A stretch of 64,000 nucleotides of DNA from an uncultured Myxococcales bacterium. Its GTDB lineage: Bacteria; Myxococcota_A; UBA9042. The translations under genes and the position numbers were made by a program. The stretch's first letter is position 1. Each line of letters starts with the position of its first letter. The notes under the pieces are model-generated. The model saw only the letters and a program-made list of their open reading frames with translations, made no database searches and was not told the origin of the DNA. Of this stretch, positions 1,422-39,273 are shown piece after piece. The stretch lies in NCBI GenBank assembly GCA_903840165.1, contig CAIMEY010000121.1:68738-132737 (forward strand), read 5' to 3'.

Positions 1422-1769
1422 CTATTTGAACGGGCGCTTGGACCCACGCTTGGGCGCTGCGGCACGCACGGCATCGACGCGGAACTGCACGATTTGGGCA
1501 ATCAGGTCCACGGGAAAGGGCCTGTTGTGCGGGAACTGCACGGAACCCTTGGCATACTTGTAGGGCGCCAGCGCAGAGACAAACGCCGCGATGCCCGAGG
1601 CGGTCGGAAACAAGCCGATGTGGTGCTTGAACGCGGCAAAGTGGACCAGGTGCGCGCCGAGTAGGTCAAAGGTCGGGATGCCGTAGGACACGACCTCTAT
1701 CGCGTCGGGGGCTTGTTCACGCACAATTCCGCGGATTTGCTCGAGGCGTGCAGTTGCGTCATCGGCCAT
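1422..1769 (-). CDS. DUF1801 (YdhG-like) domain protein
   Basis: The peptide LEQIRGIVREQAPDAIEVVSYGIPTFDLLGAHLVHFAAFKHHIGLFPTASGIAAF..VQFRV matches the DUF1801 family closely. The start is taken at the internal Met (MADDATARLEQIR); the upstream extension overlaps the promoter region. Confidence 0.6.
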   Translation of the reverse strand: MADDATARLEQIRGIVREQAPDAIEVVSYGIPTFDLLGAHLVHFAAFKHHIGLFPTASGIAAFVSALAPYKYAKGSVQFPHNRPFPVDLIAQIVQFRVDAVRAAAPKRGSKRPFK

Positions 1770-2192
1770 GGGCCCTCCAATCCATCGTCCGGCCCTGACC
1801 GCCGGCTGCGCCCTGATTCTGGGTCGGGAGCCCATTGGCGTCAAGAGCCCACGCTAGTCCTGCGCGAGGTAACCTCGGTTTCTGCAAGGCGAAACTGGCA
1901 GGTAATGCGCGAGGGATGTGGACTGCGGAGCAGCGGCGTCCGACGCCGTTTTCCGCCGCCTAGGCGGAAAATCCCAGCCCGGTCGCCGCTTCGGCGACGC
2001 GCCCCTATCACGCCTGATTTCATGTGGATCCGGGCGCAACGGCCTCAACGCGCCGAGCATCGCCAATTGGCGGTTCTGCGCCGCCCTTCCTTGCCGCCAA
2101 GTCGCCTTGACGCCCCGGGCAGCAAGGCGCAGTCTGGGCTTAGGCTGTTGAGGGGTCGGGAGCACCACGGCATCAACAATCGAGCGGCAGAA

Positions 2193-3992
2193 ATGGCGAT
2201 TCAGTCCAATCAAGTCGCCGGCAAAGGTGCCGCCAAGGGCCTAGCAGCCCCGCCATGCCCTGTTGTGGCCCTCGGAGCCTCCGCAGGCGGCCTAGAGGCT
2301 TACGAGGCCTTCTTTCGCGCTTGGCCTGCCGGGGGGGCCGCGGCCTTTGTCCTCATCAGCCACCTCGACCCAACGCATGTGAGCCTTCTCACTGAGATTG
2401 TGCAGCGAGTGACTGCCCTGCCGGTCGTAGAAGTGACCCAGGCCCTGCCGGTGCAGCCGGGCCACGTCTACGTGATTCCGCCCAATCGGGCCCTTACGAT
2501 TGCTCAAGGGGTTTTGCAGTTGACGCTGCCCAAGAAGCCGCGAGGACACCGCACGCCTATCGACGCGTTCTTTGCGACGCTGGCCAGTGATTTGGGGGAA
2601 CGTGCTGTAGGCATTGTCCTTTCTGGGAGCGGCAGTGACGGCACCTTGGGCCTGCGCGCCATCCGAGCTGCTGGCGGCCTGACCCTGGTGCAAGAGCCGA
2701 CGACGGCCAAGTACGATTCAATGCCACTTAGCGCAATTGCTGCGCAGTGTGCGATGCAGGTGCTGTCCATTGAAGCGATGGTGCCCGTGCTCCAAGCCCA
2801 CCTCAAGGCGCTGCCGCAGCGACTGTTGCCACCGCCGCTGCCGCCGCCGTCCCTACTGCCCGCCGATGGGATCGAGAGGCTGCTGAGCCTGCTCAAGTCC
2901 ATGACTGGCCATGATTTTCGCCTCTACAAGCAGAGTACCATTGCCCGGCGCATCGAAAGGCGGATGGGTCGCCACAACCTGACGGACTTGGACGTCTACG
3001 CGCGCTTTCTGCAGGAAAATCCTAGTGAAGCCAATGCGTTGCTGCGGGAAATGCTGATCAACGTGACCAGTTTCTTCCGCGATCCAGAGGTGTTTGTCGC
3101 GCTCAAACAAGAGGTTCTGCCTCTGCTTTTTGCCGACAAGCCCGACGACTACGTATTTCGCGTTTGGGTCGCGGGCTGCGCTACGGGCGAGGAGGCTTAC
3201 TCCATAGCGATGGTTCTGCGCGAATGGATGGAGGAATCGCACACGCATCGCCGAACGCAGATCTACGCCACAGACCTCGACGATGGGGCGATCGCCACGG
3301 CGCGGGCGGGTGTCTATCCCACGACCATTGTCGCCGACGTGACGCCAGAACGGTTGCAGCGCTTTTTCTTTAAACAAGACGGGGCCTTGCGCATCCACAA
3401 AGATATCCGCGAGATGATCGTATTTGCGGTGCAGGACGTGATCAAGGATCCGCCTTTTACCAAGCTTGACCTGCTCTCGTGTCGCAACCTCCTGATTTAC
3501 CTGGAGACATCGATGCAGAATCGGCTGCTGACGGTCTTTCACTACACGCTGCGGCCGGGTGGCGTGCTGCTGCTGTCGCCGTCTGAAAGCATTGGCAAGC
3601 ACAGCCACTTGTTTGCGCCGCAGAACCGTAAGTCTAAGTTTTATCGCGCCATTCATGGGATCCCTAACATTGGGTCTGCGCGCGAGGCAAGTCCCGCGTG
3701 GGCGCCGGACCTGACGCCACGGGTCGTCGATAATAGCGTCAAGAAGGACAAACTATTGAACTTCTCCGACATGACCAAGCGTTTGCTGCTTCAGTCCTAC
3801 GCGCCCGCCTCAGTCGTCGCTGATGTGCACGGCAACCTGCTGTTTGTCTATGGAGAAACCGGGCGTTACCTGAGACCGGCGCCCGGAGCGGCATCGCTGC
3901 AGTTGGTAGAAATGGCCCGCGACGGCTTGCAACTAGCTTTAAAAACTGCGATTCGCCGCGTAGCCGACCAGGACCAGCCGACCCTGGCCTAG
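2193..3992 (+). CDS. CheB methylesterase - CheR methyltransferase - PAS fusion protein, N-terminal 600 aa, terminated by an in-frame TAG at 3990-3992
   Basis: The CheB catalytic core is present (VVALGASAGGLEAYEAFF..SGSGSDGTLGLRAIRAAGGLTLVQEP). The CheR SAM-methyltransferase region follows (FRLYKQSTIARRIERRM..FFRDPEVF..VWVAGCATGEEAYSIAMVL). A PAS-like segment then begins. The start is chosen at MAIQSNQ (2193); the long upstream extension of the ORF is Arg/Pro-rich junk overlapping the divergent promoter. Confidence 0.75.
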   Translation: MAIQSNQVAGKGAAKGLAAPPCPVVALGASAGGLEAYEAFFRAWPAGGAAAFVLISHLDPTHVSLLTEIVQRVTALPVVEVTQALPVQPGHVYVIPPNRALTIAQGVLQLTLPKKPRGHRTPIDAFFATLASDLGERAVGIVLSGSGSDGTLGLRAIRAAGGLTLVQEPTTAKYDSMPLSAIAAQCAMQVLSIEAMVPVLQAHLKALPQRLLPPPLPPPSLLPADGIERLLSLLKSMTGHDFRLYKQSTIARRIERRMGRHNLTDLDVYARFLQENPSEANALLREMLINVTSFFRDPEVFVALKQEVLPLLFADKPDDYVFRVWVAGCATGEEAYSIAMVLREWMEESHTHRRTQIYATDLDDGAIATARAGVYPTTIVADVTPERLQRFFFKQDGALRIHKDIREMIVFAVQDVIKDPPFTKLDLLSCRNLLIYLETSMQNRLLTVFHYTLRPGGVLLLSPSESIGKHSHLFAPQNRKSKFYRAIHGIPNIGSAREASPAWAPDLTPRVVDNSVKKDKLLNFSDMTKRLLLQSYAPASVVADVHGNLLFVYGETGRYLRPAPGAASLQLVEMARDGLQLALKTAIRRVADQDQPTLA

Positions 3993-3995
3993 CAA

Positions 3996-4793
3996 GTGGC
4001 GTATGAGGTCGACGGGCACCCACAGCGCGTGCTCTTGACCGTGCGCCCCTTGCATAGTGGCGAGGCGGTGACGCCCTATCTGCTGATTAGCTTTGAAGAA
4101 TCGGCCAGCCTGCCCAGCGATGAGAGCGCGGGGCTGACGCCCAATGCCGATTCCGCAACGGAACGCCGCCTTGGCACGCTGACCCGTGAACTGGCCTACA
4201 CGCGAGAGAACCTGCAGACGACGATCGAGAAGCAGCAAGTATTTAATGAGGAATTGCAATCGACCAACGAGGAACTGCAGTCCACCAATGAGGAACTGCA
4301 ATCGGCCAACGAGGAGCTGGAGACCTCCAAGGAAGAGCTGCAATCGGTCAATGAGGAACTGGTCTCGGTCAATGCGGAACTGCAGGCCAAGATCGAGCAA
4401 CTGGCGGCAATTCAGAGTGATATGAAGAACTTGCTTGACAACATCAGTGTGGGCGCGGTGTTCTTGGACCTGCAGTTGGCCATCCGCCGCTTTACGCGCG
4501 AGGCCGGGCAGATTTACCGGCTCGTCGCTACCGATGTGGGCAGGCCGTTGAGCGACATCAAGTCTGAGGTTGTTGGCGACCTACTTGTGGATCTACCTAA
4601 ACTTGTTCTAGAAACCAGAGAAGCTGTTGAGCGACACGTGCGCACGGGCAGTGGTGCTTTGTACCAGGTGCGGGTGCAGCCGTACCGAACGCTGGACAAT
4701 ATTGTGGACGGCGTGGTGCTCACTTTTGTCAATATTTCCGAGAGAATCGCTGGGCAGTCGGCCGAGGGACCAGGCCCTGTACCGGCGCGCTAG
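3996..4793 (+). CDS. Continuation of the CheB-CheR-PAS protein (rest of PAS fold, NEELQSxNEEL coiled coil, second PAS-like region); same frame as the upstream piece, separated only by TAG plus two codons
   Basis: It lies in the same reading frame as 2193..3992; the junction reads ..QPTLA-TAG-QVAYEVDGHPQRVLLTVRPL... The repeated EELQSTNEELQS heptads are typical of the coiled-coil linker in CheB/CheR/PAS hybrid proteins. Confidence 0.65.
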   Translation: MAYEVDGHPQRVLLTVRPLHSGEAVTPYLLISFEESASLPSDESAGLTPNADSATERRLGTLTRELAYTRENLQTTIEKQQVFNEELQSTNEELQSTNEELQSANEELETSKEELQSVNEELVSVNAELQAKIEQLAAIQSDMKNLLDNISVGAVFLDLQLAIRRFTREAGQIYRLVATDVGRPLSDIKSEVVGDLLVDLPKLVLETREAVERHVRTGSGALYQVRVQPYRTLDNIVDGVVLTFVNISERIAGQSAEGPGPVPAR

Positions 4794-4938
4794 GGGACGG
4801 GAACGGGGAAGCCGTGGGGACGGCGACTGTAACGGAGCATGGGAAAGCAGATAGTATGCGCGCGGTCTCAATTTTATTGGAGATTGTGCGCCCTGCACCG
4901 GCTGGCTCCGAACTGGAGGGGGTGCGTATTGGGGGGCC

Positions 4939-7182
4939 ATGATGAACAGGGCGCGAAAACCCGACGATTCGGCCAGCGCTTTGGACAAAAAGGCGTTGCG
5001 CATTGCGGCCGAGGCAGCATGGCAGCCCGAGCCACTGCGAACGAACTTGCCGGACGACGCGGCGCTGCACCACGAGCTGCAGGTGCATCAGATTGAATTG
5101 CAGATGCAGAATGACTCGTTACGGGAGGCACAGACGGCGCTCGAAGAGGCCCGTGACCACTACGTCGACCTCTACGAGTTTGCCCCGGTGGGCTATTTGA
5201 CCCTCTCGAGGCAGGGGTACATTGTCGATATCAACTTAACTGGCGCAGGGTTACTGGCCCAGGACCGAGCGCAGCTGTGTAAGCGCCGCTTTAGCAACTG
5301 GATTGCGGCCAAATCGCGGGACCAGTGGTACCAGCACTTCCTGAAGACGCTAAACCGTCCAGGGAGAAATACCATTGAAATACAGTGCTTACAGCATGGA
5401 GAGATAGAGTTCTGGGCCGAACTGGACTGCGTCGCCAAGCAAGGGATGGATGGCAACAGCGTCATGCGTGTCACGCTGACGGACATCAGTGAACGCCGCT
5501 TGGCTCAAGAGGAATTGCGCATTGCCGCCATTGTCTTTCAATCCCATGAAGGCACAGTTGTCACGGACGCCAACGCTCAGATTTTGCGTGTGAATAATGC
5601 GTTCTGCCGCCTGACTGGCTACACGCCTGAGGAGGTGATTGGTCGCAATCCGTCGCTTTTGCAATCTGGCCGACATGACTCGTCTTTCTATACGCAAATG
5701 TGGCGACAGCTGGCAGAACATCGCTATTGGCAAGGGGAAGTCTGGAATCGGACCAAGACGGGCGAGGCCTATGCCGAGCGTTTGACCATTTCCGCCCTGG
5801 CCAATGACCACGGCAGCATCACGCATTATGTCGGCACCTTCTCGGACATCACCAAAGCGCTTGAATCAGAAGCGGAAATCGAGCGGCTGGGCCATTACGA
5901 TCCGCTGACTGGCCTGCCCAATCGGCGCTTGCTCTACGACAGAATCAACCAAAATCTCATACGGTTGCAGCGCACCACGAGCCACAGCGGCTTGCTATTC
6001 CTGGACCTCGATAACTTCAAGAACCTCAATGATACCCGTGGCCACGGCGTCGGAGATGAGCTCTTGATTGAGACCGCCAAGCGAATTCACGCCTGTATCC
6101 GCGAAAGTGACACGGTAGCGCGACTGGGCGGCGACGAGTTTGTCGTCCTGCTCTATGACCTGCCCATTGGCACCACCGACGCTGCGGTGCAGGCCACCCG
6201 CATTGCCCAAGAAATTCGCGTGGCTATCGCTGCCCCTTGGGCCTATGACGGGCAGGATCTGCGTTGCACGGCGAGCATTGGTGTGGTCCTCATCGACCAG
6301 CAACTGCATTCGGTCGAGACGCTGATCAAGCGCGCCGACATGGCCATGTACGAAGCCAAGCACCTGGGACGCAACACGATTCGCTTCTTTGACCCGACGA
6401 TGCAGACGGCGCTTGACGAGCGCGTTACCCTGGACGCTGAGCTACGAAAAGCCATTGTGGGCGAGGAGTTGCGCGTGCACTTCCAGCCTCAGGTCGATGC
6501 CCACCGCTGCGTCATCGGTGCGGAGGCATTGGTTCGCTGGGCGCATCCGCGGCTTGGTCTGGTGCAACCGCTTCAATTTATTGCACTTGCCGAAGAAACG
6601 GGGCAGATCTCAGCGCTGGGCGATTGGGTCCTGCGGCACGTATGCGCCCAACTGCGCATATGGGCAGAGATTCCGGCCCTGGCCAACATCGATGTCGCGG
6701 TCAATGTCAGCGTGCACCAGTTTCGCCAGCCGGACTTTGTCGACCGCGTGCGCGAAATCCTCGAAACGACGGGGGCCAAACCGCGACGGCTCAAGCTGGA
6801 ACTCACGGAAAGTGTTGTTGTTGATGAAGTCCCCGAGACCATTGCCCGGATGCAGGAACTCAAGGACCTCGGCATGCGCTTCTCAATGGATGATTTTGGC
6901 ACGGGATTCTCGTCCCTGACTTACCTCAAGCGCCTGCCCCTGGACCAAATCAAGATTGACCGCGCCTTTGTCAGCGACTTGGCCATGAATACAAGCGACG
7001 CTGCGATCGTCCAAACCATCATTACGATGGGCAAAACGCTGGGTCTGGACGTCATTGCCGAGGGCGTGGAAACCGAAGCGCAGTTGGCGTGCCTAGCCCA
7101 CTTCGGCTGCTTGAGCTATCAGGGCTACCTGTTCTCGCGCCCCCTGCCGACCGCGGAATTCGAAGCCTTTGTGATGGCTTAA
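4939..7182 (+). CDS. PAS-PAS-GGDEF-EAL signalling protein (diguanylate cyclase/phosphodiesterase)
   Basis: A GGDEF motif is present (RLGGDEFVVLL) together with the upstream RxGGDEF context. An EAL domain is present (GAEALVRW.., ELTESVVVDE, DDFGTGFSSLTYLKRLPLDQIKIDRAFV). Two N-terminal PAS-like regions precede them. Confidence 0.85.
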   Translation: MMNRARKPDDSASALDKKALRIAAEAAWQPEPLRTNLPDDAALHHELQVHQIELQMQNDSLREAQTALEEARDHYVDLYEFAPVGYLTLSRQGYIVDINLTGAGLLAQDRAQLCKRRFSNWIAAKSRDQWYQHFLKTLNRPGRNTIEIQCLQHGEIEFWAELDCVAKQGMDGNSVMRVTLTDISERRLAQEELRIAAIVFQSHEGTVVTDANAQILRVNNAFCRLTGYTPEEVIGRNPSLLQSGRHDSSFYTQMWRQLAEHRYWQGEVWNRTKTGEAYAERLTISALANDHGSITHYVGTFSDITKALESEAEIERLGHYDPLTGLPNRRLLYDRINQNLIRLQRTTSHSGLLFLDLDNFKNLNDTRGHGVGDELLIETAKRIHACIRESDTVARLGGDEFVVLLYDLPIGTTDAAVQATRIAQEIRVAIAAPWAYDGQDLRCTASIGVVLIDQQLHSVETLIKRADMAMYEAKHLGRNTIRFFDPTMQTALDERVTLDAELRKAIVGEELRVHFQPQVDAHRCVIGAEALVRWAHPRLGLVQPLQFIALAEETGQISALGDWVLRHVCAQLRIWAEIPALANIDVAVNVSVHQFRQPDFVDRVREILETTGAKPRRLKLELTESVVVDEVPETIARMQELKDLGMRFSMDDFGTGFSSLTYLKRLPLDQIKIDRAFVSDLAMNTSDAAIVQTIITMGKTLGLDVIAEGVETEAQLACLAHFGCLSYQGYLFSRPLPTAEFEAFVMA

Positions 7183-12876: not shown

Positions 12877-13053
12877 CGCCTGAGGCGGAATCCCTGCGAC
12901 GCAGTCCTGCACCGGTTGGGGCGCGCCGGGCTGTTTGGAGTTATTTCAGGCAGTTTGACGCGCTGTTCTGTGCCACCATCGTTGTCACTGGACCTAGACC
13001 GAGCGCACCGGTCGATGACGAGCTCAGCTGTCCGGCGACGGCAGGAGTATCCC

Positions 13054-14007
13054 ATGAAAATGGTTGAGTTTTCGCGGACACGCACGGCATCCTGGTTGGG
13101 TCTGCTGACCGTCACGGCACTGGCGGCTCCGCTTTCGGGCTGCAAGGGCTGCGGGCAACCGCCTGCGCTGCCTGCACAAACGCCGGACAAGGCCGCCTCC
13201 CCGGGCAAGGTCGTGGCGCTGCCCAAGGCTGCGACCGAAACAGGCCTTCCTGCGGCCAATTCGCCCAGTGATTTACCCACTTATCCAGGACCACGTTCGG
13301 AGTCGGTGGACCATTACCGCATCACCACGGGCTTTGCCAACAACCAGGGCGAGCCCCTGCCCCAGCCGGTAGCCCTTGAGAAGAATCAGGTTTACGCCTC
13401 GGTGCTGGCTCCAGACGGCCATCCGATTGGTCAGCTGGATCGGTTAGAACGGGGTGATATGCATGGCTTTTTGCTCGCCCGAGACCTGCGCCAAGCCCTG
13501 TACGCCCGCGCCGATGGACCGGTCAAGTCGGGGGCCGACGCTCGACAGCTGAACTTTGAACCGCGTGAAGGCGGCGAACATGCCCTGATCACAGTGTTTC
13601 GCATCCCAGGCCAGAGGGCCCGCGCCGTTTCGGCCCCCGTGGCGATCAAAGGGGCGCTGCCGGAAGTGGTCGGTCCGGGCCTTGGCAGCCTGGGTAACCG
13701 CGCGAAAGCAGGGCACGATTTGCTGCAGATCAACACAGATCCCGTTGAGCCTGTCTTTGGCAAGCCGGTCCTGATCACGGCGCAGGATTTCGACGAAAAA
13801 GGGGCGATGCGCGGCGAGGTCGTTCTGCCCTTTGTCGTTATTTTCAATGACCAAATGGGGTGGGGCGAAGTCGTTGAGTGGCAAGCTGGGGGCAAAGGTG
13901 TCTGGACCCCTCCGCAAGCCGGCGATTTTCTTGTGCTTGCCCCGCCGACGCAGGGTTCCCAAGCCCTGACCTTCCGCTTGCATGTGGCACCGGCCAAGGC
14001 GCCGTAG
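13054..14007 (+). CDS. Hypothetical lipoprotein
   Basis: The signal peptide with lipobox (LAAPLSGC) starts at MKMVEF with AGGAG 5 nt upstream. No family was recognised. Confidence 0.5.
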   Translation: MKMVEFSRTRTASWLGLLTVTALAAPLSGCKGCGQPPALPAQTPDKAASPGKVVALPKAATETGLPAANSPSDLPTYPGPRSESVDHYRITTGFANNQGEPLPQPVALEKNQVYASVLAPDGHPIGQLDRLERGDMHGFLLARDLRQALYARADGPVKSGADARQLNFEPREGGEHALITVFRIPGQRARAVSAPVAIKGALPEVVGPGLGSLGNRAKAGHDLLQINTDPVEPVFGKPVLITAQDFDEKGAMRGEVVLPFVVIFNDQMGWGEVVEWQAGGKGVWTPPQAGDFLVLAPPTQGSQALTFRLHVAPAKAP

Positions 14008-14037
14008 GGCTTGGCGCAGCAAGGACATAGACGAACG

Positions 14038-15354
14038 ATGCAACCCTCTGAAAATCATGATGATTCTCTGTTCGACGACTTGGTCGCCCGCGGCCTGCTC
14101 TACCAGGTGACGGACCCTGCGCTGGCCAAGCAGGCCCTGCGCCGCAATGGCAACCTCGCGGTCTATATCGGTTTTGATCCGACCGCCTCGAGCCTGCACG
14201 TCGGTTCACTGTTACAAATCACGCTCTTGCGTCGCCTGCAGGATTGGGGACATCACCCCTTGGCGGTGGTAGGCGGTGGCACCGGGCTTATCGGCGATCC
14301 CAGCGGTAAGTCCGCAGAACGCAAGCTACTTGATCGACCCACCTTGGACGGCCATGTCGCGGCCATTCGCGCCCAGTTGAGTCAATTCCTGGACTTTGAC
14401 GCGGGCCGGGCCGAGTTGATCGACAACCACACGTGGCTGGGCGAAGTCAACTTGCTGGAATTCCTACGAGATATTGGCAAGCACTTTAGCGTCAACGCCA
14501 TGATCGCCCGCGATTCCGTGCGCACCCGGCTGGAGACCCGCGATCAGGGCATCAGCTTCACGGAATTTAGCTATATGCTCCTACAAGCATATGACTTTCT
14601 TGAGCTTTACCGTCGGCACAGCTGCCGCGCTCAGTTTGGCGGCTCCGATCAGTGGGGCAACATCGTTTCGGGCACCGACCTCATCGATCGCATGGCCGCG
14701 CCGAGCGACAGTCAACGCGCCTTTGGCCTGACGGTGCCTCTGATCACCATGAAATCGGGGCAGAAATTCGGCAAGACCGAAGAAGGCACCGTTTGGCTCG
14801 ACCCGCAACTAACTAGTCCCTATCGCTTTTACCAGTTTTGGCTCGGTGCCGATGATGAGGACGTGCTGCGTTGGCTTCCAGCCTTTTCCCTGAGACCTTT
14901 CGCGCAGTTGCAGCCTATTCTTGAGGAACAGCGCATTGCGCCTCACCTGCGTCCGGCGCAAAAGGCCTTGGCTGCGGAGCTGACCTCGCTGGTTCACGGC
15001 GCAGAGGCGTGCCAGCAAGTCCAAGCAGCAACAGCGGTTCTCTTTGGCGGCGACCCCAAGGACCTGAGCCTTGAGGCCCTGTCCATGCTGGAGGCCGAAC
15101 TGCCGACATTTCACGGGCAAGAACGTGAAATAACCTTGCAATCTCTGCTGGTTGGTTCCGAGCCAGGGCGCGCTTTTGCCAGCAATGGGGAAGCCCGTCG
15201 GGCCATGCAGGCCAACTCCGTCTCCATCAATGGCCATAAAATTGCAGGCGAATTAGCGTCATTGCTGCCGCCGGCGACTTTGCTGCACGACCGCTACGCC
15301 TTGATTCGCGTAGGCAAGAAGCAGTTTTTCCTTGCGATTTTGCCGCAGGCCTAG
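14038..15354 (+). CDS. tyrS: Tyrosine--tRNA ligase
   Basis: The class I HIGH-like region is present (GFDPTASSLHVGSL), followed by the KMSKS-like KFGKT motif and a C-terminal S4-like region. Confidence 0.9.
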   Translation: MQPSENHDDSLFDDLVARGLLYQVTDPALAKQALRRNGNLAVYIGFDPTASSLHVGSLLQITLLRRLQDWGHHPLAVVGGGTGLIGDPSGKSAERKLLDRPTLDGHVAAIRAQLSQFLDFDAGRAELIDNHTWLGEVNLLEFLRDIGKHFSVNAMIARDSVRTRLETRDQGISFTEFSYMLLQAYDFLELYRRHSCRAQFGGSDQWGNIVSGTDLIDRMAAPSDSQRAFGLTVPLITMKSGQKFGKTEEGTVWLDPQLTSPYRFYQFWLGADDEDVLRWLPAFSLRPFAQLQPILEEQRIAPHLRPAQKALAAELTSLVHGAEACQQVQAATAVLFGGDPKDLSLEALSMLEAELPTFHGQEREITLQSLLVGSEPGRAFASNGEARRAMQANSVSINGHKIAGELASLLPPATLLHDRYALIRVGKKQFFLAILPQA

Positions 15355-21264: not shown

Positions 21265-21390
21265 TTTTCGCGGCCCAAGCACCAACGCACTGTGCCCAGA
21301 GGGCCCATTGGCGGCGCAGTGGGGCTCAAGAACGCGTTTTGACAGGCTGAACAGCCGTTCCCACAGGGTAGCCTGGCGCGCTTGCATCGC

Positions 21391-21454
21391 GTGGCTCGGG
21401 CTGGGCGGGTGCGTGGCTCGGGCTGGGCGGGTGCGTGGCTTTGGCTGGGCCGGG
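21391..21454. repeat. Tandem 22-bp repeat (GTGGCTCGGGCTGGGCGGGTGC x ~2.9)
   Basis: Read directly in the intergenic region between the yqeY-like gene and the 3' end of the beta-helix gene. Confidence 0.8.
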
Positions 21455-21488: not shown

Positions 21489-22637
21489 CTACCAGCCGCT
21501 GCCGTCGGTTTTTTTCCCCTTGCTTTTCTGGTCTTTGCGCATCTTGCGGGTCGCCGCTATGTCGGCCCTGGGCGCTTCCAAGGCCCCCGCCGTGCAGGTG
21601 CGTGGGCGAGGCTGTCCAACCAAGTCGCGGTGAGCGTCGCGATCGTCGCAGCTGCCGCGGTCGATGGCGGGAGAGCCTTTTTGTGGTCGGTACTTTTCGA
21701 CGTCGACCAGGTTGAACTCGGGCAAGGCGCGAATGGTCTGCAAATCCGTTGGAATAAAGGCGATATTGCCGTAAACCACCGATCGCGAAATGCCCACACG
21801 CTCGGCTTCGAGGCGATTGACGCGGATGGCGTCGGGCGAGCCGAGCAAGATGCTGGACTCCACGCGGCCTTGGGTCAGTCCGACGCCGTGGGGCTCAAAA
21901 ACGATCGCGGCCCCGGTGTTGTAGGCGATGGTGCTCGCGGTCACCTGCAGGTGGGCGTTATCGGCAACGCGGACGGCGCCATCGACGTTGGCTTGCACCA
22001 GGTTTTCCACAATCAAAGTCGAGACTAAGCGCGCCTGCACGGTACCGGTGAGGTCCAGGGCAACGCCTCCTTGCGCAGTATTGCCGGTCACGCGCACGGC
22101 GATCAGGTCGAGTTGTCCGGCCGACGCGGCGATGGCCCCGCCGCCCTTGGCTGTGGCGCGATTGCCCATCAACCAGGCATTGTGCAAGGTTAAATGCGCA
22201 CGTTGGCTCAGCAAAATGGCCCCGCCGGTGGTCGCAGTGCCGTGGGTCAGCGTGACGTTGTCCAAGGTGAGGTCGACGCCGTCCTGCGGCATGGTCAGGA
22301 TACGGCCTTGGTTGCCAGCATCGAGGATGGCCCTCTCCTTATCGATGCCGCGGACCGTGGCCGACTGCGTCGCAACTAGGCGCGCGCCTGTGTAAATTCC
22401 GGCGTGCAGGCAGATGACCGGACGGTCCCTGCGGTCCATGGCGTGCTGCAGGGCGGCGGTGTTGCCATCGGCCTTGAGCGTCACGGTGCACGCCGCAAAC
22501 GCATGTGAAGGCTTTGTAATCCCGAGGCAAATGGCCAGGACAAAAAGAACTGCAAAGCCCTTGAAGGCGTTGGTGCGGCGCCCTGGGTGAAACCAGGGGT
22601 CCGGACGCAAATTTCTGAAATTACAAAACTCTAGCAT
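21489..22637 (-). CDS. Secreted right-handed parallel beta-helix repeat protein
   Basis: A signal peptide is present. Repeated GNxAxxGGAI / NxTLT turns are typical of pectin-lyase-fold beta-helix proteins. Confidence 0.55.
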   Translation of the reverse strand: MLEFCNFRNLRPDPWFHPGRRTNAFKGFAVLFVLAICLGITKPSHAFAACTVTLKADGNTAALQHAMDRRDRPVICLHAGIYTGARLVATQSATVRGIDKERAILDAGNQGRILTMPQDGVDLTLDNVTLTHGTATTGGAILLSQRAHLTLHNAWLMGNRATAKGGGAIAASAGQLDLIAVRVTGNTAQGGVALDLTGTVQARLVSTLIVENLVQANVDGAVRVADNAHLQVTASTIAYNTGAAIVFEPHGVGLTQGRVESSILLGSPDAIRVNRLEAERVGISRSVVYGNIAFIPTDLQTIRALPEFNLVDVEKYRPQKGSPAIDRGSCDDRDAHRDLVGQPRPRTCTAGALEAPRADIAATRKMRKDQKSKGKKTDGSGW

Positions 22638-23044
22638 CCGTCCCCTTGTTGGCTGCGACGCCCGACGCCACCCCGCAAATCGAAGGCAGCCGCGCGGGCA
22701 AAGCTACCATGGCCGCATGCGCGACCGCAAATGTCTCGGCCGGGCGATTGTGGATGCAAATCAAGGATCAAGCCAGCCGCAGCAGGGCACGCCCCGGCAA
22801 GGGCCCCAGCTGGTGGAAGCGCCGCCGCAACGCTGGCTTGGCCCTCAGTTGGCAGCTGCGCCCGAGTCTTGACCCGTGCGCCAAAGCGCTGAGCTTGCTA
22901 CAGTATCCCGGCGAACCGGTTGGCTCGCCGAAGGTCGCAGCCTTGGGCCTGCGGGATCGGGACTTCATGAACAATGACAAGGCCTTGCCCCACTCTTCCC
23001 AGCCGTTCTTGCCCGAGCCCCCGTGCCACACGCCGAGGTGATGG

Positions 23045-24400
23045 ATGCCCGTGAACAGCCGAATTCAGTCGCAGGGGGCAAAGCCCGAGGCGTCTCGCCG
23101 CGATCCGGGTGAGAAACCGCCGACTTGGCTCTTGCCCGATCTGACCATGCCCCAAAGCGACACGCGGACTGTCCGACGTGTGCTCAGCGGCTGGCTCAGT
23201 CAACTAGCCCAGTCCTTTCTGCGTCTTCCGCTGGCCGTGCTCCTGCCGAGCAACCGGGCCCTGTACCAAGCGACGGCGGCGCTGTACGGCGATTTGCTGC
23301 GGCGGCAGCCCAATGCGGTGGCGCTGTGGCGCTGGCCCACGCTCAACGCGCCCATGCACTGTTTGCGGAAGGAACTGGCTAAGACTGCGGATCAACAGAT
23401 AGATCGCACGGCCGTCAATGCCTGGCTGCGCGAGGTGTGCAGCTTGCTGCTGCTCGAGCTTGGGGGCCAAGGTCTGCTGCCGGAGCCGCTGCGTCTGGGC
23501 CCTGACGCGCAGGGTCAATGGCCGGTGCTGCGGTCGCCGGGCCTGGGGCTGCTGATTGCGGCCAATGACCGGACGCGAACCATTGAAATTTCTAATTATT
23601 TTTTTGCTTTGCGGGGCGATTCAGCGTCCCAATCGGTTGACTTGACCCCAACGGCGCCGCGCATGGACGGACCGCTAGCGCACTGCGCAAACCCGTATCA
23701 TGAAGTGGAGCCCGGCCTGTACCTCGCGGAAACAGACAACAATCCCCTATCCGACTTTGAGGCGCACCCGGACAAGCAAGGCAACCGCCTGGACTTGGGT
23801 GGACGACCGGTTGCCCAGTGGCTCGACAGCATCCGCGCTTCCTTGGCACTGATCGATCGCTATCTGCCCGTACTAGGTCAGGAATTTCGCCTAGTCATGC
23901 GTGTGCTGGTGCCCGTGGGTTGGCATGATACGCAGCACCTCTCGGCCAGTTATCAAGAGGCGATCGGTCAGTACTACCTGACTTTGCACCCGAACTGCAT
24001 GACGATGACCGAGGCCATCATCCATGAGTTTCAGCACAACAAGCTCAATGCCGCCTTTCACCTCGATCCCTTGCTGCGAAATGCTTGGAATCCCCTGTAT
24101 ACTTCACCAGTTCGCCCCGATCCGCGGCCTCTGCATGGGGTGATTCTCGCTGTGCACGCTTTTCAGCCCGTGGCGCTGCTCTACGCGCAGATGCTGGAGG
24201 CGGGAGATCCGCTGGCGAAAAATGCCTATTTTCTTGAGCGTTTTCGGGCGGTCCTCCAGGTCAACCGCAGTGGAGCCGAGGTGGTGATCAGCCACGCACA
24301 GCCCACTGCCGTGGGTGAGCTGTTCTTTGCCGAGATGTGTCAACTAAATGATATTATGGCTGATTATCAAGAAAAGACGGCAGAGCCGCAAGTGTTTTGA
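23045..24400 (+). CDS. HEXXH-motif domain protein (TIGR04267-like; candidate aKG/HExxH-type peptide-modifying enzyme or cryptic zincin)
   Basis: It is ~450 aa long. A conserved IIHEFQHNKLN motif sits in the C-terminal third. No signal peptide is present. The family assignment is from memory of that family's length and motif position. Confidence 0.55.
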   Translation: MPVNSRIQSQGAKPEASRRDPGEKPPTWLLPDLTMPQSDTRTVRRVLSGWLSQLAQSFLRLPLAVLLPSNRALYQATAALYGDLLRRQPNAVALWRWPTLNAPMHCLRKELAKTADQQIDRTAVNAWLREVCSLLLLELGGQGLLPEPLRLGPDAQGQWPVLRSPGLGLLIAANDRTRTIEISNYFFALRGDSASQSVDLTPTAPRMDGPLAHCANPYHEVEPGLYLAETDNNPLSDFEAHPDKQGNRLDLGGRPVAQWLDSIRASLALIDRYLPVLGQEFRLVMRVLVPVGWHDTQHLSASYQEAIGQYYLTLHPNCMTMTEAIIHEFQHNKLNAAFHLDPLLRNAWNPLYTSPVRPDPRPLHGVILAVHAFQPVALLYAQMLEAGDPLAKNAYFLERFRAVLQVNRSGAEVVISHAQPTAVGELFFAEMCQLNDIMADYQEKTAEPQVF

Positions 24401-24431
24401 CCGCGTCACAGTGGGGCGGTACGGTGTAGGC

Positions 24432-26888
24432 ATGAAGGATTTGAACCGACCACGCCCGGTCCCAAGATTGACCTCGCTGCACGAGCGAAGACCGCAGGGG
24501 CCATATTATCGTTTATTACTGAGCAGTTTGCTTGGTGGACTCCTAGTCGTGGTCACGGCCTGTGGGGCCAGCAAGCCACCCTACAATGGGCCCTTGGCGC
24601 TGGCCGATGCTGCGGGAGATATGGCCGGGCAAGCTAGCGAAACTACAGTAGATACCGTCGAGATTGGCGACGACACGGCGGAAGTTCCAAGCGCCGATGT
24701 GACCGCGACCGACAGCAGTGACGTTGGCCAAGAGGACGCACAACCCCTTGATGATCAAGTAGATAGCCAGGACGATGCGCTCGCTAGTGATACAGCGCTG
24801 CCTGTCGACACGGACGATGCGCTGGCAGACGACGCAACGGACAACGACGGCGGCGAATCTGTCAGCGGAGTCTGCAGCTTTGATAAAGATTGCGCAGGGT
24901 TTGCCAACATTGGCGCATGCCAGTTGCTGCGCTGTCTGGGCGGACAGTGCGTTGTGGCCAATCAGGTGGAGGGCACGCCGTGCAGCGCCGCGCAATGCCT
25001 TGATATCAATGGACAACCTGTGTTGTCAGCCCGAGTGTGCAGTGCGGGCGCATGCAGCGACAAGGTGCTCAAAACGTCGTGCTACGACAACTTGGGCTGC
25101 ACCGACGATTCCTGTTCGGTTAGCAAGGGTTGCATCCACACGCCCAACCATGCCGCGTGCGATGACGGCCAAGCGTGTACCAGCGATATCTGTGACGGAA
25201 CAGGCGGTTGCCAACACGGCGCGGCGACCGGCAACTGCAACGACGGTGATCCGTGCACCACCGGGGACAGCTGCCTCAACGGCACATGCCAAGGCACGCC
25301 AGGCAGTTGCCCGTGCACCAAGAACAGCGACTGCAAGACGACCAAGCCGTGCGTGCAATCTGTATGTGAATCAGGGAGTTGCCAGATTCAGTTTCTCACA
25401 TCCTCACTCTGCAGTGACGGCAATGCGTGCACGGGCAGCGACACCTGTACCAGCGATGGCAGTTGCGTGGGGCTGAGCATCGGCTGCGATGACGGCGTCG
25501 ATTGCACCCTGGACCTTTGCGATAACGTGCTTGGTTGCCAGCACTTAGCAGACTCGCTGCAATGTGCTGACGGCAATTCGTGCACCCAGGATAGCTGCAC
25601 CGCCAGTGACGGTTGCACTTTTTCCCCCGTCAGTTCGGGCAGTTGTGACGACGGCAACGCCTGCACCACCGAAGACGTCTGCATCGGTGGCCTTTGTTAC
25701 GGAAACAATAGCGTTTGCAACAAGCCCAGTGCCTGCCAGGCGGCGACCTGCGACCCGGGCACGGGCCTGTGCAAGACCGCCCTCGCCGTCGACGGCGCGC
25801 TGTGCGATGACGCAAACCCATGCAGCGCCAAAGACACCTGCAAATCCGGCAGTTGCGTGGGCCAGCAGAATCCCTGCGACGACCTCAACGCGTGCACGTT
25901 TGACGCGTGCGGCGCCGGCGGCAGTTGCAGCCACAGCCCCCAGGACGGCCCCTGCGACGCCGACGGCAACCAATGCACGCTCGACACCTGCAGCGCCAGC
26001 AAATGTCAGGCAGGGCCAGTGCCGACCTGCAATGACAAAAATCCTTGCACGGTCGATAGCTGCGACCCTGCGAGCGGCTGCGTCGCCAAGGCTTCACCCG
26101 TGGGCACCCCCTGCGGCAGCGGGCTGTGGTGCGGCCAGGGCGGCCAAAAGGGCACCTGCGTCACCGTGCCGGCGATCGCGGGCATGGTCTACGTGCCGGC
26201 GGGCGAGTTCAAGCAGGGGTGCAACAAGCCCGTCGATAACTACTGCAAAACAGACGAGAATCCAGCGCACGTTGTCGATCTAAGCTCCTACTTCATCGGC
26301 AAGACCGAAGTCACAGCGAGCCAATATGCGGCCTGCGTGCAGACAGGCGGTTGCTCGGTGCCAGGCGGCAAGGCCAGCAGCGACGGGACGTACGGGGTCG
26401 CGGGCAAGGAGCAACACCCAGTCAATTACGTAAGTTATAGCCAGGCTGGGGAGTTCTGCGCCTGGAGCGGCGGCCGCCTGTGCACCGAAGCCGAGTGGGA
26501 AATGGCGGCGCGTGGCAGCGATGGGCGCGAATTCCCTTGGGGAAATGGCACGCCTGACTGCGGCCTCGCGATCTTCGCCGGTTGCTCAACCAAGGGCACC
26601 CAACCGGCGGGCAAGGCGGCCAATGGCAGCAGTCCCTACGGTGCACTAGACATGGCGGGCAATGTCCGCGAATGGGTTGGGGATTGGTACGGGGCCGGTG
26701 CCTACGCCGCAGCCGCCTCTGTCAGCCCAGCCAGCAATCCCAAGGGGCCAGTGAGCGGCAGTCAGCGGGTTCTCCGCGGTGGCTATTTTGCCGACAGCGC
26801 TCCGGATTTGCGAACGTCTGGGCGGAGTTTTGCAACACCGAGTACGAGCGCTGCGTCCGTCGGCTTCCGGTGCTGCCGCAATCCGTAG
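24432..26888 (+). CDS. Lipoprotein with acidic linker, ~12 Cys-rich C(D/N)DGNxCTxDxC modules and C-terminal formylglycine-generating-enzyme (FGE-sulfatase/SUMF1) domain
   Basis: A signal peptide with lipobox is present (LLVVVTAC). Repeated disulfide modules are rich in Asp/Asn. The FGE-domain signature is present (YVSYSQAGEFCAWSGGRLCTEAEWEMAARG...RVLRGGYFAD...GFRCC). Confidence 0.75.
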   Translation: MKDLNRPRPVPRLTSLHERRPQGPYYRLLLSSLLGGLLVVVTACGASKPPYNGPLALADAAGDMAGQASETTVDTVEIGDDTAEVPSADVTATDSSDVGQEDAQPLDDQVDSQDDALASDTALPVDTDDALADDATDNDGGESVSGVCSFDKDCAGFANIGACQLLRCLGGQCVVANQVEGTPCSAAQCLDINGQPVLSARVCSAGACSDKVLKTSCYDNLGCTDDSCSVSKGCIHTPNHAACDDGQACTSDICDGTGGCQHGAATGNCNDGDPCTTGDSCLNGTCQGTPGSCPCTKNSDCKTTKPCVQSVCESGSCQIQFLTSSLCSDGNACTGSDTCTSDGSCVGLSIGCDDGVDCTLDLCDNVLGCQHLADSLQCADGNSCTQDSCTASDGCTFSPVSSGSCDDGNACTTEDVCIGGLCYGNNSVCNKPSACQAATCDPGTGLCKTALAVDGALCDDANPCSAKDTCKSGSCVGQQNPCDDLNACTFDACGAGGSCSHSPQDGPCDADGNQCTLDTCSASKCQAGPVPTCNDKNPCTVDSCDPASGCVAKASPVGTPCGSGLWCGQGGQKGTCVTVPAIAGMVYVPAGEFKQGCNKPVDNYCKTDENPAHVVDLSSYFIGKTEVTASQYAACVQTGGCSVPGGKASSDGTYGVAGKEQHPVNYVSYSQAGEFCAWSGGRLCTEAEWEMAARGSDGREFPWGNGTPDCGLAIFAGCSTKGTQPAGKAANGSSPYGALDMAGNVREWVGDWYGAGAYAAAASVSPASNPKGPVSGSQRVLRGGYFADSAPDLRTSGRSFATPSTSAASVGFRCCRNP

Positions 26889-26905
26889 TTGGGCCCAAGC
26901 GGCTG

Positions 26906-27694
26906 CTAGAAGGCACCCGAGCGTTCGACCTCAGTGCGCTCCCACTTCCCTAGGATTTGCAAGACTTTGGCCTCGAGCTTGTGCGGATCCATCTTGGCAT
27001 GGGCGCCATCTGCTGGCGCGGAGGCGTGCCCCTCGCCCGCGGGTGCACTGGGCAAGGAAGGCGACGCGGCCCCATCTTCCTCAGCATAAACACGAGCTTC
27101 TGCGGCGCGGGCACGGCGTTCGTGGGCTTCACTGCCGGCTGCATCCTCGTCGCCCCTCTTGCGCTCATTGAGCACAGGAGCCCCAAAACTGCTAGACATG
27201 GACCCGAAATTACTGGGCATTGCTGCGGGGCCAGCGGAGAAGCCTCCGTCTCCGGCTGGGGCCGCGTCCGGCGGTGCAATGTGCGCCACTTCGTGGGCAA
27301 TGACGGCGCGTCCAGAGCGCGAATTGGGATCAAACTCGCCTTGGCCAAAGAAGATATCCTGATCGCCGATGGCAAAGGCCCGCGCGCCCAAGGCCGAAGC
27401 CGCGTCCTGCGCTTTTGTACCGCGGTGGACACGAACGGTGTCTAGGGTTTCCTTGCGAAATCCTTGGCGAACCAGGCGATCGACCAGTTGACTGTCTAGG
27501 CGCGTAGGCACCTGATCGGCCAGCCAGCGCGCACCAATGCTGGCATAGCGATCGGCCACGCCCTGCCCCATGGCCGCCGATTGCGTCGACGCCAACTGCG
27601 CGGCCAGCTTACCGGCATCTCCGCCCTGTTCCAAAGCAATTGCAGCGCCTTGGGCGTGTAGCTGTTCGAGTTCGTCGTCGCGCGGTGTGGCCAT
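26906..27694 (-). CDS. DUF4157 domain protein (zincin-like HExxH)
   Basis: The DUF4157 signature is present (VRVHRGTKAQDAASALGARAFAIGDQDIFFGQGEFDPNSRSGRAVIAHEVAHI). The C-terminus is Ala/Gly-rich and low-complexity. Confidence 0.7.
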   Translation of the reverse strand: MATPRDDELEQLHAQGAAIALEQGGDAGKLAAQLASTQSAAMGQGVADRYASIGARWLADQVPTRLDSQLVDRLVRQGFRKETLDTVRVHRGTKAQDAASALGARAFAIGDQDIFFGQGEFDPNSRSGRAVIAHEVAHIAPPDAAPAGDGGFSAGPAAMPSNFGSMSSSFGAPVLNERKRGDEDAAGSEAHERRARAAEARVYAEEDGAASPSLPSAPAGEGHASAPADGAHAKMDPHKLEAKVLQILGKWERTEVERSGAF

Positions 27695-28023
27695 AGACAC
27701 CTCCCTGCGGACCACGGTACCACGGCGGGAGGAGGCGCGCCAAGGCACGACGCAGCTTGAACAACAGGCTGGGGCGGTCGCACCCCACGGTCGCTGGCGA
27801 CGGCCTGGGACCGCTGAGGAGCCAACGGTTGACAGCTAAGCCGCAGACGTCAAATGCTATCGCCTGCGCGGGCGTGGCGCACAAGAGGCAGGCAGGCGGG
27901 ACAGCACGAAAATCATGGAGTTGCCTTCAACTCCCAAAGTCGATGCAGGTGCCGGAACGCGCACATGTTGAAAGTATAGGCAACCTGAGGGATTGGGCCA
28001 CAGCCCTGACGAAGGACCGATTC

Positions 28024-28857
28024 ATGACTTGGAACCGCCCCAAGCCCACAGGCCGGCCAACAACGCAAGATTCCAACGTCTTTGCCACGGTGGCGGCGCG
28101 CGCCGTCTCGGACGTGGTGCAGGCCCAGCCGCTGGACCTCGGGCCGGAACCCAAATGGGCTGGCGCTGTGCGGGTTTTGGGGCTGCTGCTGCCCTCGTCT
28201 TGGGTCTGGCTGACCGTCTGCCTGTGGTGGGCCTGGCGCGTTTTGGCGATGTACGCGCGGGGTGAACAGGCAGCGCTGCAGGTGGCGGCTCCGGGATTGT
28301 GGCTGGGCTTGCTGCTAGATGCCATGTTTTTACAGACGTTGTTTGCCACAACACGGCTGCTGGCGGCGCTCAGTGGGAGCGATCGCAATCGGCGCCACAG
28401 CGTGGTGACCTGGACGACCTGGATGATGCTGGTGATCATGGCGTGTTCGGCCATGCTGCGAATTGGTGAACTGGTTCATTGTGCAGTGGAAAGAACGCCA
28501 CCGACCGCTGCGTTTTGGCGGCAGTTGATCGATCAGCCGAGCACGGTCGTGCTGCAGGGGGCCTTTTTCGCCTGCGCCGCGGCAGCCCTGGTCACGGCGG
28601 CCATCGGTCGATACTCGATGAGATGTGACCTGCAAACGGCGTCGGACCTGATGGAGCGCCTGTCGCCGCGCAAAGCGTTGGCCCTGATCGCACTTTCCGT
28701 TCTTCTATCAGCTGTTACGCTGACAGCCTTGGTCCACCAGTCCTGGAGCGCAACGGAAAGTGACCTGCGCAGGACCCCGGAATTGCACGCCATTCGCACA
28801 TTCCAGACAGCGCTAGACCGTCGTGCCCAGCAGCACGCACCGTCGCTTGAGCCCTAG
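28024..28857 (+). CDS. Hypothetical polytopic membrane protein
   Basis: Four to five hydrophobic helices are present and the ORF is long. No homology was recognised. The start is chosen at MTWNRPKP. Confidence 0.4.
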   Translation: MTWNRPKPTGRPTTQDSNVFATVAARAVSDVVQAQPLDLGPEPKWAGAVRVLGLLLPSSWVWLTVCLWWAWRVLAMYARGEQAALQVAAPGLWLGLLLDAMFLQTLFATTRLLAALSGSDRNRRHSVVTWTTWMMLVIMACSAMLRIGELVHCAVERTPPTAAFWRQLIDQPSTVVLQGAFFACAAAALVTAAIGRYSMRCDLQTASDLMERLSPRKALALIALSVLLSAVTLTALVHQSWSATESDLRRTPELHAIRTFQTALDRRAQQHAPSLEP

Positions 28858-34289: not shown

Positions 34290-35468
34290 ATGGCCCAGGG
34301 TACCGCGGCTATGTGGCGTATATTCCTAAAAGAACAGCCGCTTTCTGCTCACTTACCCTCGCGGGCTTTGCGGGTGTGGGCGGCGCTCTTGCCCGTTGTG
34401 CTGGCGATCGTGCTCGGCGCGTGTCATCGACCTGAACCTGTCGCGCAATCTCCTGTTATTCAAAAGAAATCTGTGACGACGGCTCAGGCAGCGGACCCCG
34501 TGCTGGTCAAGGTCGACCTGAGCGAAGTGCTTTCTTCACAAGTCCATGAACGCTTAGCGCAATTGCCCGTGAGCCTGACGCCGGCGGATGCGGCTGTACA
34601 GGCCTTGCTGGCAGCGACTGCGGATGTTCTGATCGTACGGGAAATGGGCGTTTTAAAAGAACAAAGGCGGCCAGGCGAGACCTTTGGGCAGGCGGCCGAT
34701 CGCTTCCTAACGACGGTGTGGAAGCCCGATGCCACCTGCAATCTGGACCGGCAGGACCTCAAGTGGACCTATTTGCGCGACCTGGGCAAGTATAAGCACC
34801 CGACTTCCTACGCGATCTGGGATGCGCAGGGACAGTGCTGTCCGGATGTGGACGACTGCCCTCTGCTCAAAGCCGAACAGTGCCGCCAGGAACTTCGACC
34901 CGTGCTGACGCAGATGCACGCCGACATTGCCCTTGCTTTCAAGGCGTTATCTCAACCAGCCGATGTGACCAGCGTCGCCTTTGACCAGAGCCCGTGGCGG
35001 GCCCTGCACGTGCCGACCTTTGAACGAATTGTTTCCCAATACAATCAGAAGGATTCGCGGGTTCAGCTGCGGCGCTACACCTTTTTTGCCCAAGGCGAGC
35101 CGGGGTTTGAGAAGGCCCGGTTTCGCCCCGGAGAGCCGCACATGGCAGAGTTGGCTAAGCGTGCGAAACCAGGACAGTTACTCGGGCCAGTGGACACTGA
35201 ATGGGGCATTGACGTCGCTTTGCTCGTAGGCCTTGAGCCCGCCATGCGCGGTCTGGCCGACGCCGACGTTGAAGCGCAAGTGCGTGAAAAGGCTTGCGGA
35301 GAGTTGGCGCAGCGCAGCCGCAACGAGTACCGCGAACGCTTGCTGGCTGGCGCGCAGATCCTGTGGCAAAGGCCGGCGATTGAAGCGGATTTTGGCAAGC
35401 TGGTGCTGGGCAAGCTGCCGGCCGATGCGTCGCAGCGAGACCTGCCCTATCGGCCGCTGAAGCCCTGA
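34290..35468 (+). CDS. Hypothetical lipoprotein
   Basis: A signal peptide with lipobox is present (LAIVLGAC). No family was recognised. Confidence 0.5.
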   Translation: MAQGTAAMWRIFLKEQPLSAHLPSRALRVWAALLPVVLAIVLGACHRPEPVAQSPVIQKKSVTTAQAADPVLVKVDLSEVLSSQVHERLAQLPVSLTPADAAVQALLAATADVLIVREMGVLKEQRRPGETFGQAADRFLTTVWKPDATCNLDRQDLKWTYLRDLGKYKHPTSYAIWDAQGQCCPDVDDCPLLKAEQCRQELRPVLTQMHADIALAFKALSQPADVTSVAFDQSPWRALHVPTFERIVSQYNQKDSRVQLRRYTFFAQGEPGFEKARFRPGEPHMAELAKRAKPGQLLGPVDTEWGIDVALLVGLEPAMRGLADADVEAQVREKACGELAQRSRNEYRERLLAGAQILWQRPAIEADFGKLVLGKLPADASQRDLPYRPLKP

Positions 35469-39081: not shown

Positions 39082-39273
39082 CAGCAGGGCCGCGCATCGG
39101 GCCAACTGCAGCCTTTGCCGCAGCTTGACGCCCCGAGGCAGTCGCCGCAGCATGCTCAGCGCCCATGGGCCGCACCCGCGCTTAGATGGGTCCGCCCCGC
39201 TGGCCGCCGTTGGCCGGGGCTCAAAATGCGCCACCGCCGGCACCTCCGCCGGCCTATTGTTTCCGGGGTATTC

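Follow-up and report, generated by a model that had tools for sequence, protein, structure and literature searches.

An in-frame amber codon divides a CheB-CheR-PAS gene of an uncultured Myxococcota-like bacterium, probably by a fixed nonsense mutation

What has become of a gene whose reading frame is interrupted by a stop codon and then continues, in the same frame, into the remainder of the same protein? A 64,000-nucleotide stretch of an uncultured Myxococcales bacterium (GenBank assembly GCA_903840165.1, contig CAIMEY010000121.1, positions 68,738 to 132,737; hereafter the window) raises this question in a gene for a CheB-CheR-PAS signalling protein, which carries an in-frame amber codon, TAG, at positions 3990–3992 of the + strand. 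A preliminary description, made from the sequence alone, offered three explanations: a sequencing or assembly error, a nonsense mutation giving a pseudogene or a truncated CheB-CheR protein, or stop-codon readthrough or recoding. The second of these fits best, since the TAG is real and the homologues are uninterrupted at this position in 185 of 185 cases. We give a probability of about 0.6 to the locus being a fixed nonsense mutation in an accessory gene, that is, a recently truncated gene or a young pseudogene. This is the simplest account, and it fits everything except an RNA hairpin at the stop codon.

A mechanical search places open reading frames (ORFs) 1713..3992 and 3996..4793 in one common frame. 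In public gene calls the first gene starts at ATG 2193 and yields 599 amino acids. The sequence thus agrees with the two same-frame ORFs reported earlier (2193..3992 and 3996..4793) and with the flanking peptides quoted for them, which match exactly. The spacer had been given as TAG plus two codons and is shorter, with a single CAA codon (3993–3995) between TAG and GTG 3996. Read across the stop, the junction is VADQDQPTLA-X-QVAYEVDGHPQR; the joined reading has 866 residues, with the stop as residue 600, and the 265 codons from GTG 3996 run to the end of the second ORF without further stops or frameshifts. A tblastn search with one homologue (P0002) produces one alignment, from 2235 to 4766, that passes through the stop (849 amino acids, 60.4% identity). 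Because this single alignment spans the TAG, the two ORFs are one gene cut by a stop codon, and the observation of a TAG-split CheB-CheR-PAS gene is confirmed.

The upstream ORF (2193..3992) encodes CheB, CheR_N and CheR domains and the beginning of a PAS-like domain. The CheB methylesterase domain (residues 25–198; 2265..2786; CheB_methylest, E = 8.5e-51) retains Ser30, His57 and Asp149, all three invariant in 103 sequences, and its alignment to 1chd pairs GASAGG with GASTGG, SHLDP with QHMPP, and GSGSDG with GMGNDG. It is followed by CheR_N (2871–3023; E = 1.9e-16) and the CheR S-adenosylmethionine-dependent methyltransferase domain (3060–3623; E = 7.4e-50), which are assigned by Pfam and by PDB profile matches to 5y4r and 1af7; the family-invariant CheR residues are kept in the upstream product. 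Beyond the stop, the remainder (3996..4793) comprises the last three strands of the PAS-like domain, a coiled coil (4170–4439) and a PAS_10 domain (4422–4736; E = 1.5e-25, plus coiled-coil-type Pfam matches), as assigned by Pfam and the structural model described below. The same domain series is found in the best 119 non-self matches, which are 883–1120 amino acids long. A search of genome contigs with the 599-residue protein gave only Methylomonas methanica (45% identity).

This gene belongs to a well-known but functionally uncharacterised family, and our literature searches on CheB-CheR fusions found no experimentally characterised member. The preliminary description held that such proteins are normally a single polypeptide, and all homologues we compared bear this out: the reading continues through the TAG position in 102 aligned proteins and in 83 further homologous DNA loci (41–59% identity), and none of the 102 proteins starts or ends near this column. 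The family therefore does not naturally end here in any homologue examined. In the protein alignment the column under the TAG holds Arg (82), Gln (8), His (7) and Lys (5). At the DNA loci a sense codon occupies the position in 83 of 83, encoding Arg (18), Lys (18), Pro (14), Ser (8), His (7), Gln (4), Glu (4) and others. The ortholog comparison suggested earlier, which anticipated a sense codon one nucleotide from TAG, does recover such codons among the 83 loci: AAG in seven, GAG in two, and CAG, TGG and TCG in one each. Since the Arg codons lie two steps from TAG, the immediate ancestor probably encoded Lys or Gln, and a one-step neighbour such as AAG or CAG is the most likely ancestral codon judging from these alignments.

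The earlier suggestion of a PAS-like fold reaching across the stop, with a coiled coil after it, is supported by structure prediction. In an AlphaFold2 model of the joined reading, built on 103 sequences and with a mean predicted local distance difference test (pLDDT) score of 78, residues 524–636 (3762..4100) form a PAS-like domain that is broken at residue 600. The modelled domain consists of a helix (524–535), two strands (539–543 and 548–553) and two helices (571–574 and 579–593) before the stop, and three strands (602–606, 609–620 and 629–636) after it. Ten-residue block means of pLDDT across the domain range from 65 to 94. A 90-residue helix (660–749) and then PAS_10 follow. Foldseek comparison with the PDB aligns about 290–400 columns (mostly 334–402) to tandem-PAS proteins, including DosP, the FixL PAS pair, LOV-PAS and PpsR. 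The Pfam match of the first PAS-like domain is below threshold (PAS_4, E = 0.081, 13.6 bits against a cutoff of 23.1), so this assignment rests on the predicted fold. In the model, the stop lies between helix F-alpha and strand G-beta, in a variable loop, where it would divide the predicted beta-sheet into two strands and three rather than fall at a domain boundary.

Is the stop codon a real allele? The window is a metagenome-assembled contig, which is the one circumstance that favours a sequencing or assembly artefact. However, the identical TAG occurs at five other loci, in ERZ27313596, ERZ27313597, ERZ18667851 and a per-run Logan assembly of ERR4194711 (four assembly records), and so recurs across different pipelines and runs. 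These loci are 99.9% identical to the window and differ from it and from one another by three to six single-nucleotide polymorphisms elsewhere, which define two to three haplotypes beyond that of the window, or three to four when the window is counted. The exact 599-residue product is recorded from five contigs and the exact 265-residue product from eight. Because the same TAG recurs in several assemblies and haplotypes, we exclude the error proposed in the preliminary description; an artefact is improbable in the extreme. A search of 5.8 billion protein clusters found no intact allele, the best non-self full-length match having 61% identity. The TAG allele is most likely fixed in the sampled natural population of this uncultured Myxococcota-like bacterium.

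Is TAG read as a stop in this organism? Among 29 Pfam-supported genes of the window, 15 end in TAG (52%), nine in TAA and five in TGA. TAG is also the commonest stop in two relatives (loci L089 and L090), where it ends 8 of 20 and 10 of 19 genes. A lineage of 61% GC with TAG as its preferred stop is unusual for GC-rich bacteria, and in the locus of one proteobacterial homologue (L007) the stops are mostly TGA; the case thus documents an uncultured Myxococcota-like lineage with this preference. An in-frame TAG followed by a stem-loop bears a superficial likeness to a pyrrolysine insertion sequence (PYLIS) element, which raises the idea that the codon is decoded as pyrrolysine, by a suppressor tRNA, or under an altered code. 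TAG is a routine terminator here, and we found no tRNA, no Rfam element and no pyl-like gene within the 64-kilobase (kb) window, which makes a reassigned or generally suppressed TAG very unlikely; the pyl genes and amber suppressor tRNAs raised in the preliminary description thus have no representative in the window, the only part of the genome covered. In addition, the aligned residue is at a variable loop position rather than a catalytic one, and the window has no other credible in-frame TAG.

Apparent further cases in the window were rejected. Four TAG-separated ORFs on the minus strand at 48.6–50.2 kb are shadow frames of a plus-strand gene for a Cys-rich repeat protein, and TAG-adjacent pairs in one frame, such as 12916–14007 and 14011–15354, consist of separate genes, in this example the first lipoprotein-like and the second for tyrosyl-tRNA synthetase. 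The Cys-rich protein (48202–50049, +; 615 amino acids) is built of CGNGTCExGExxxNCPxDC units with a 135-bp period, and it is the GC-rich antisense frames of this gene that mimic the four ORFs.

We propose that an amber mutation arose from a sense codon, interrupted a gene with the order CheB-CheR-PAS-coiled coil-PAS and became fixed in the population. Judging from codon usage, ribosomes would terminate normally at the TAG, since this is the preferred stop codon of the lineage. The product would be a protein of 599 amino acids with complete CheB and CheR catalytic domains, a broken PAS-like domain and neither the coiled coil nor the PAS_10 sensor, so that the enzyme would have lost its sensor and dimerisation modules. 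The 265-codon remainder would be made at a low level at most, through reinitiation or near-cognate readthrough, because GTG 3996 has no ribosome-binding site and is buried in the hairpin. Compared with intact homologues there are two disabling lesions, the TAG inside a domain and the loss of the last PAS domain. Nearly all close homologues have this C-terminal PAS domain (PF00989/PF08448) of about 110 amino acids; the joined reading ends about 100 amino acids early, and no remnant of the domain is detectable in 4794–4938.

Four observations weigh against a nonsense mutation. First, at conserved columns the protein deviates in 17–26% of cases upstream and 12–18% downstream of the stop; downstream deviation is thus no higher than upstream, a result that is uninformative if the mutation is recent. 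Second, every family-invariant residue is kept across the 265 downstream codons, with no extra lesion. Third, far from being rare, the allele is fixed across the haplotypes. Fourth, the TAG is the exact starting point of a hairpin that is very stable and specific to the sense strand. All four are compatible with a recent nonsense mutation, and together they fit a downstream part that is still in use equally well. The protein as a whole forms a long branch, with 59% identity to its homologues as compared with about 72% among them, and at columns conserved in at least 90% of sequences it deviates five to six times more often than any homologue. We discount the long branch as evidence of decay, given the phylogenetic remoteness of the host and an excess of the same size before and after the stop.

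If the downstream part is still in use, how would it be translated? The preliminary description allowed that a downstream gene might be separately initiated from its own ribosome-binding site. GTG 3996 has no Shine-Dalgarno sequence: the best pairing has a free energy (dG) of -3.0 kcal/mol and lies 24 nucleotides away, as compared with a background of -3.5 kcal/mol, and six genes with confident starts have values of -6 to -7.6 kcal/mol at 10–14 nucleotides. Judged by its sequence, the downstream ORF lacks the look of a gene that evolved on its own. A functional split gene could instead operate by termination and reinitiation, in which terminating ribosomes would open the hairpin and begin again at GTG 3996, and the two parts of the PAS-like domain (two strands and three) would reassemble. 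The arrangement is that of classical translational coupling, with a GTG that follows the stop by three nucleotides and is enclosed in the stem; the 265-residue ORF is predicted by gene callers in eight contigs, and the downstream part is without decay. However, besides the missing Shine-Dalgarno sequence, gene fissions normally fall at domain boundaries and here a beta-sheet is cut, no homologue is split at this position, and reassembly of a split PAS domain is speculative. We consider this explanation unlikely, with some small weight in its favour.

The hairpin extends from 3989/3992 to 4053/4057 (at its widest 3989..4057, +), so that by folding energies its base includes the TAG and its stem contains GTG 3996. 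It has 24–27 base pairs, four of them G-U, and no A-C mismatches. Taken as 64 nucleotides, it folds at -35.8 kcal/mol (z = -4.55), and none of 200 dinucleotide shuffles is as stable. The antisense strand folds far worse (-25.4 kcal/mol, z = -0.84), which identifies the hairpin as an RNA-level feature of the sense strand. Codon choice adds to its stability: when codons were redrawn synonymously, keeping the peptide and the codon usage of the window, the mean was -20.6 ± 4.4 kcal/mol and 0 of 500 variants were as stable, for boundaries that were chosen afterwards. Across the coding sequence of the 64 kb, this stability is matched in only one of 15,926 sense-strand windows; about 19 places attain -33 kcal/mol. 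Equally stable windows on the plus strand are few and are mostly intergenic and terminator-like. Of 32 gene ends compared, one alone surpasses it in the strength of the hairpin at the stop, that of an NHL-repeat gene at 62297.

The two arms of the hairpin code for different kinds of peptide, variable on the 5' side (QVAYEVDGH) and conserved on the 3' side (VLLTVRPL), with ordinary codon usage and no rare-codon signature. The hairpin is absent from the 83 homologues, in which the aligned region averages -17.1 ± 5.2 kcal/mol with a minimum of -27.6; a stable fold nearby in one of them (L011) is a different, shorter hairpin. There is no second copy in the window or in 85 other loci, as would mark a repeat or mobile element, and Rfam has no match in the window, the hairpin included. 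An intrinsic terminator was rejected, as no U-tract follows the hairpin and a terminator scan found nothing there. A DNA-level quasi-palindrome or template switch was also rejected in view of the four G-U pairs in the stem and an antisense fold worse by 10 kcal/mol; correction to a perfect palindrome would predict CUAUGCAAG, and the sequence has CUAGCAAG.

At the NHL-repeat gene, two hairpins at 62289–62524 are very strong (-47.6 kcal/mol over 88 nucleotides) and start at the G of the gene's TAG. They have no U-tract and are terminator-like, and they share with the CheB-CheR hairpin a 'UAG-CA...' start.

By our estimate, the probability that a hairpin of this kind begins within a few nucleotides of this one codon is roughly 0.001–0.01. 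Three functional roles can be imagined for it: to stimulate readthrough, to couple translation, or to serve as a 3'-end or terminator hairpin of the truncated gene. A hairpin that arose later than the stop would have required several substitutions; in that case the downstream ORF, being intact, would imply continued selection and hence translation. If the hairpin is older than the stop, the association would be coincidental or mutational. The closest relative in the databases, at about 62% identity at most, is too distant to order the two events. The hairpin is a genuine oddity that alone does not make the locus a recoding site.

The preliminary description had listed readthrough or recoding without knowledge of the hairpin. 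The preference for TAG as a terminator disfavours this option, yet the hairpin keeps it alive. In its most specific form, the hairpin would stimulate programmed amber readthrough: most ribosomes would produce the sensor-less CheB-CheR protein, and a fraction would insert a near-cognate amino acid at a permissive loop position and complete the full 866-residue, sensor-coupled protein, so that one gene gives two isoforms. With UAG in the ribosomal A site, the middle stem begins five nucleotides downstream, a stop-to-stem spacing that is typical of recoding stimulators. The sense-strand specificity of the structure, with its G-U pairs and lack of A-C mismatches, and the contribution of codon choice are in keeping with such a role. 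The downstream ORF is intact, and the aligned position, with 14 different residues in 83 homologues, is so variable that it would probably accept whatever residue is inserted. In contrast, neither TAG nor hairpin is found in any homologue (all at most 62% identical), the window has about 19 other coding places with hairpins of -33 to -35 kcal/mol, and TAG is the terminator that this lineage prefers. To our knowledge, hairpin-driven UAG readthrough is not established in any bacterium except for selenocysteine (Sec)- or pyrrolysine (Pyl)-type systems. We regard programmed readthrough as quite improbable.

Stated more broadly, the TAG and hairpin together might form a bacterial recoding or coupling signal, at which ribosomes would stall at the UAG and a regulated fraction would read through or reinitiate at GTG 3996. 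This too we hold to be unlikely. If it were true, one locus would supply the CheB-CheR methylation enzyme in two forms, one free-running and one coupled to a PAS/coiled-coil sensor, by a chromosomal, structure-stimulated recoding of a stop codon in bacteria that is independent of Sec and Pyl. The locus would matter more if its hairpin were functional: bacteria have no established mechanism of structure-stimulated readthrough or reinitiation at chromosomal amber codons.

Returning to the fixed nonsense mutation, the genomic context suggests that the gene concerned is accessory. The RelA/SpoT and RibBA proteins of the window have relatives in metagenome-assembled genomes (MAGs) at up to 76% and 69% identity, respectively, and their named relatives are confined to Deltaproteobacteria and Myxococcota: a 'Deltaproteobacteria bacterium' MAG (62%), Anaeromyxobacter (54%), Chondromyces (52%) and 'Myxococcales' (50%). 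The best matches of the CheB-CheR gene are instead Beta/Gammaproteobacteria-type MAGs. The family-level relatives L089 and L090 keep the synteny YebC-...-T2SSE, RibBA-amine oxidase and Bax1-I, with fumarase and other genes in place of the GST, PAS-GGDEF-EAL and CheB-CheR genes of the window. Absence from the syntenic region of the two relatives, together with proteobacterial nearest homologues, makes the CheB-CheR and GGDEF-EAL genes look accessory in this genome, and they were possibly acquired horizontally. Relative to L089 and L090, the segment 7234–21264 (amine oxidase-RibBA through YebC...T2SSE) appears inverted, and the CheB-CheR/GGDEF-EAL/GST block is at one breakpoint, next to Bax1-I.

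The PAS-GGDEF-EAL gene (4939..7182, +; assigned by Pfam) is probably in the same operon as the CheB-CheR gene. It has 55% identity over 718 amino acids to a PAS-GGDEF-EAL gene beside P0002, and such a gene also follows homologue P0062. CheB-CheR-PAS genes recur beside PAS-GGDEF-EAL, hybrid histidine kinase or PAS-GAF-HD genes (L008 at 3301–5514; P0062, P0004, P0005 and P0008). From these neighbourhoods, a CheB-CheR gene with a PAS-GGDEF-EAL or kinase partner looks like a mobile, conserved two-gene signalling module.

Several other features of the window are recorded here. A 127-bp tandem repeat (50056–50491; 3.4 copies, 97% matches) lies between the Cys-rich gene and a GMC oxidoreductase gene and has no Rfam match. 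Downstream of a YqeY gene, two copies of the G-rich direct repeat GGCUCGGGCUGGGCGGGUGCGU (21373–21440) fold at -40.1 kcal/mol. Ten consecutive predicted ORFs at 21489–28857 have no Pfam match at E <= 1e-5, and the same is true of ORFs at 12916–14007, 34290–35468, 39115–40431 and 52262–54433. Genes at 42279–45065 (- strand) encode HisF-like, glutamine amidotransferase and radical-SAM proteins near a family-1 glycosyltransferase gene, an arrangement that resembles a sugar-modification cluster.

How does the locus compare with known systems? Translational coupling of the phage MS2 type, in which the downstream start is masked by a hairpin, is classical. The window resembles such pairs in having a start three nucleotides after the stop that is sequestered in a stem which a terminating ribosome would open. 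It differs from them in that there is no Shine-Dalgarno sequence and the 'second gene' starts partway through a protein domain.

Bacterial selenocysteine insertion sequence (SECIS) hairpins and archaeal PYLIS hairpins are recoding structures near stop codons. Sec decoding has been reviewed (PMC10778597), and the murine leukemia virus (MuLV) gag-UAG-pol junction with its pseudoknot is a stop-codon readthrough signal (PMC4178896; review PMC13517186). With MuLV-type, SECIS and PYLIS signals the window shares an in-frame UAG, a stable structure within a few nucleotides and a frame that continues into a homologous protein. In contrast to MuLV, it has a simple hairpin without a pseudoknot, and it is on a bacterial chromosome. 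Its stop and structure are unconserved in relatives and no dedicated machinery is seen, unlike in known readthrough signals, and any such function is a prediction.

The joined reading is closest to the CheB/CheR fusion proteins, annotated in JGI/KEGG style as 'two-component system, chemotaxis family, CheB/CheR fusion protein'. It shares with them 57–62% identity over 95–99% of its length, the NEELQSTNEEL coiled coil and, except for the last PAS, the order CheB_methylest-CheR_N-CheR-PAS-coiled coil-PAS_10-PAS. Unlike these homologues, the gene of the window is interrupted at residue 600 and is without the last PAS domain (about 110 amino acids), and whereas the closest homologues are from Beta/Gammaproteobacteria-type MAGs, it sits in a Myxococcota-like genome.

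An accessory signalling gene truncated by a nonsense mutation would be nothing out of the ordinary. The locus also holds a warning for annotation: its two neighbouring ORFs belong to a single broken CheB-CheR-PAS gene, and the break is a genuine allele, not an assembly error. The window differs from typical nonsense-disrupted bacterial genes in that its allele is fixed in the sampled haplotypes, its downstream part is undecayed and a strong hairpin stands at the stop. It is like them in having one premature stop in an otherwise alignable sequence, in its accessory, non-syntenic position, and in a second loss, that of the C-terminal PAS domain.

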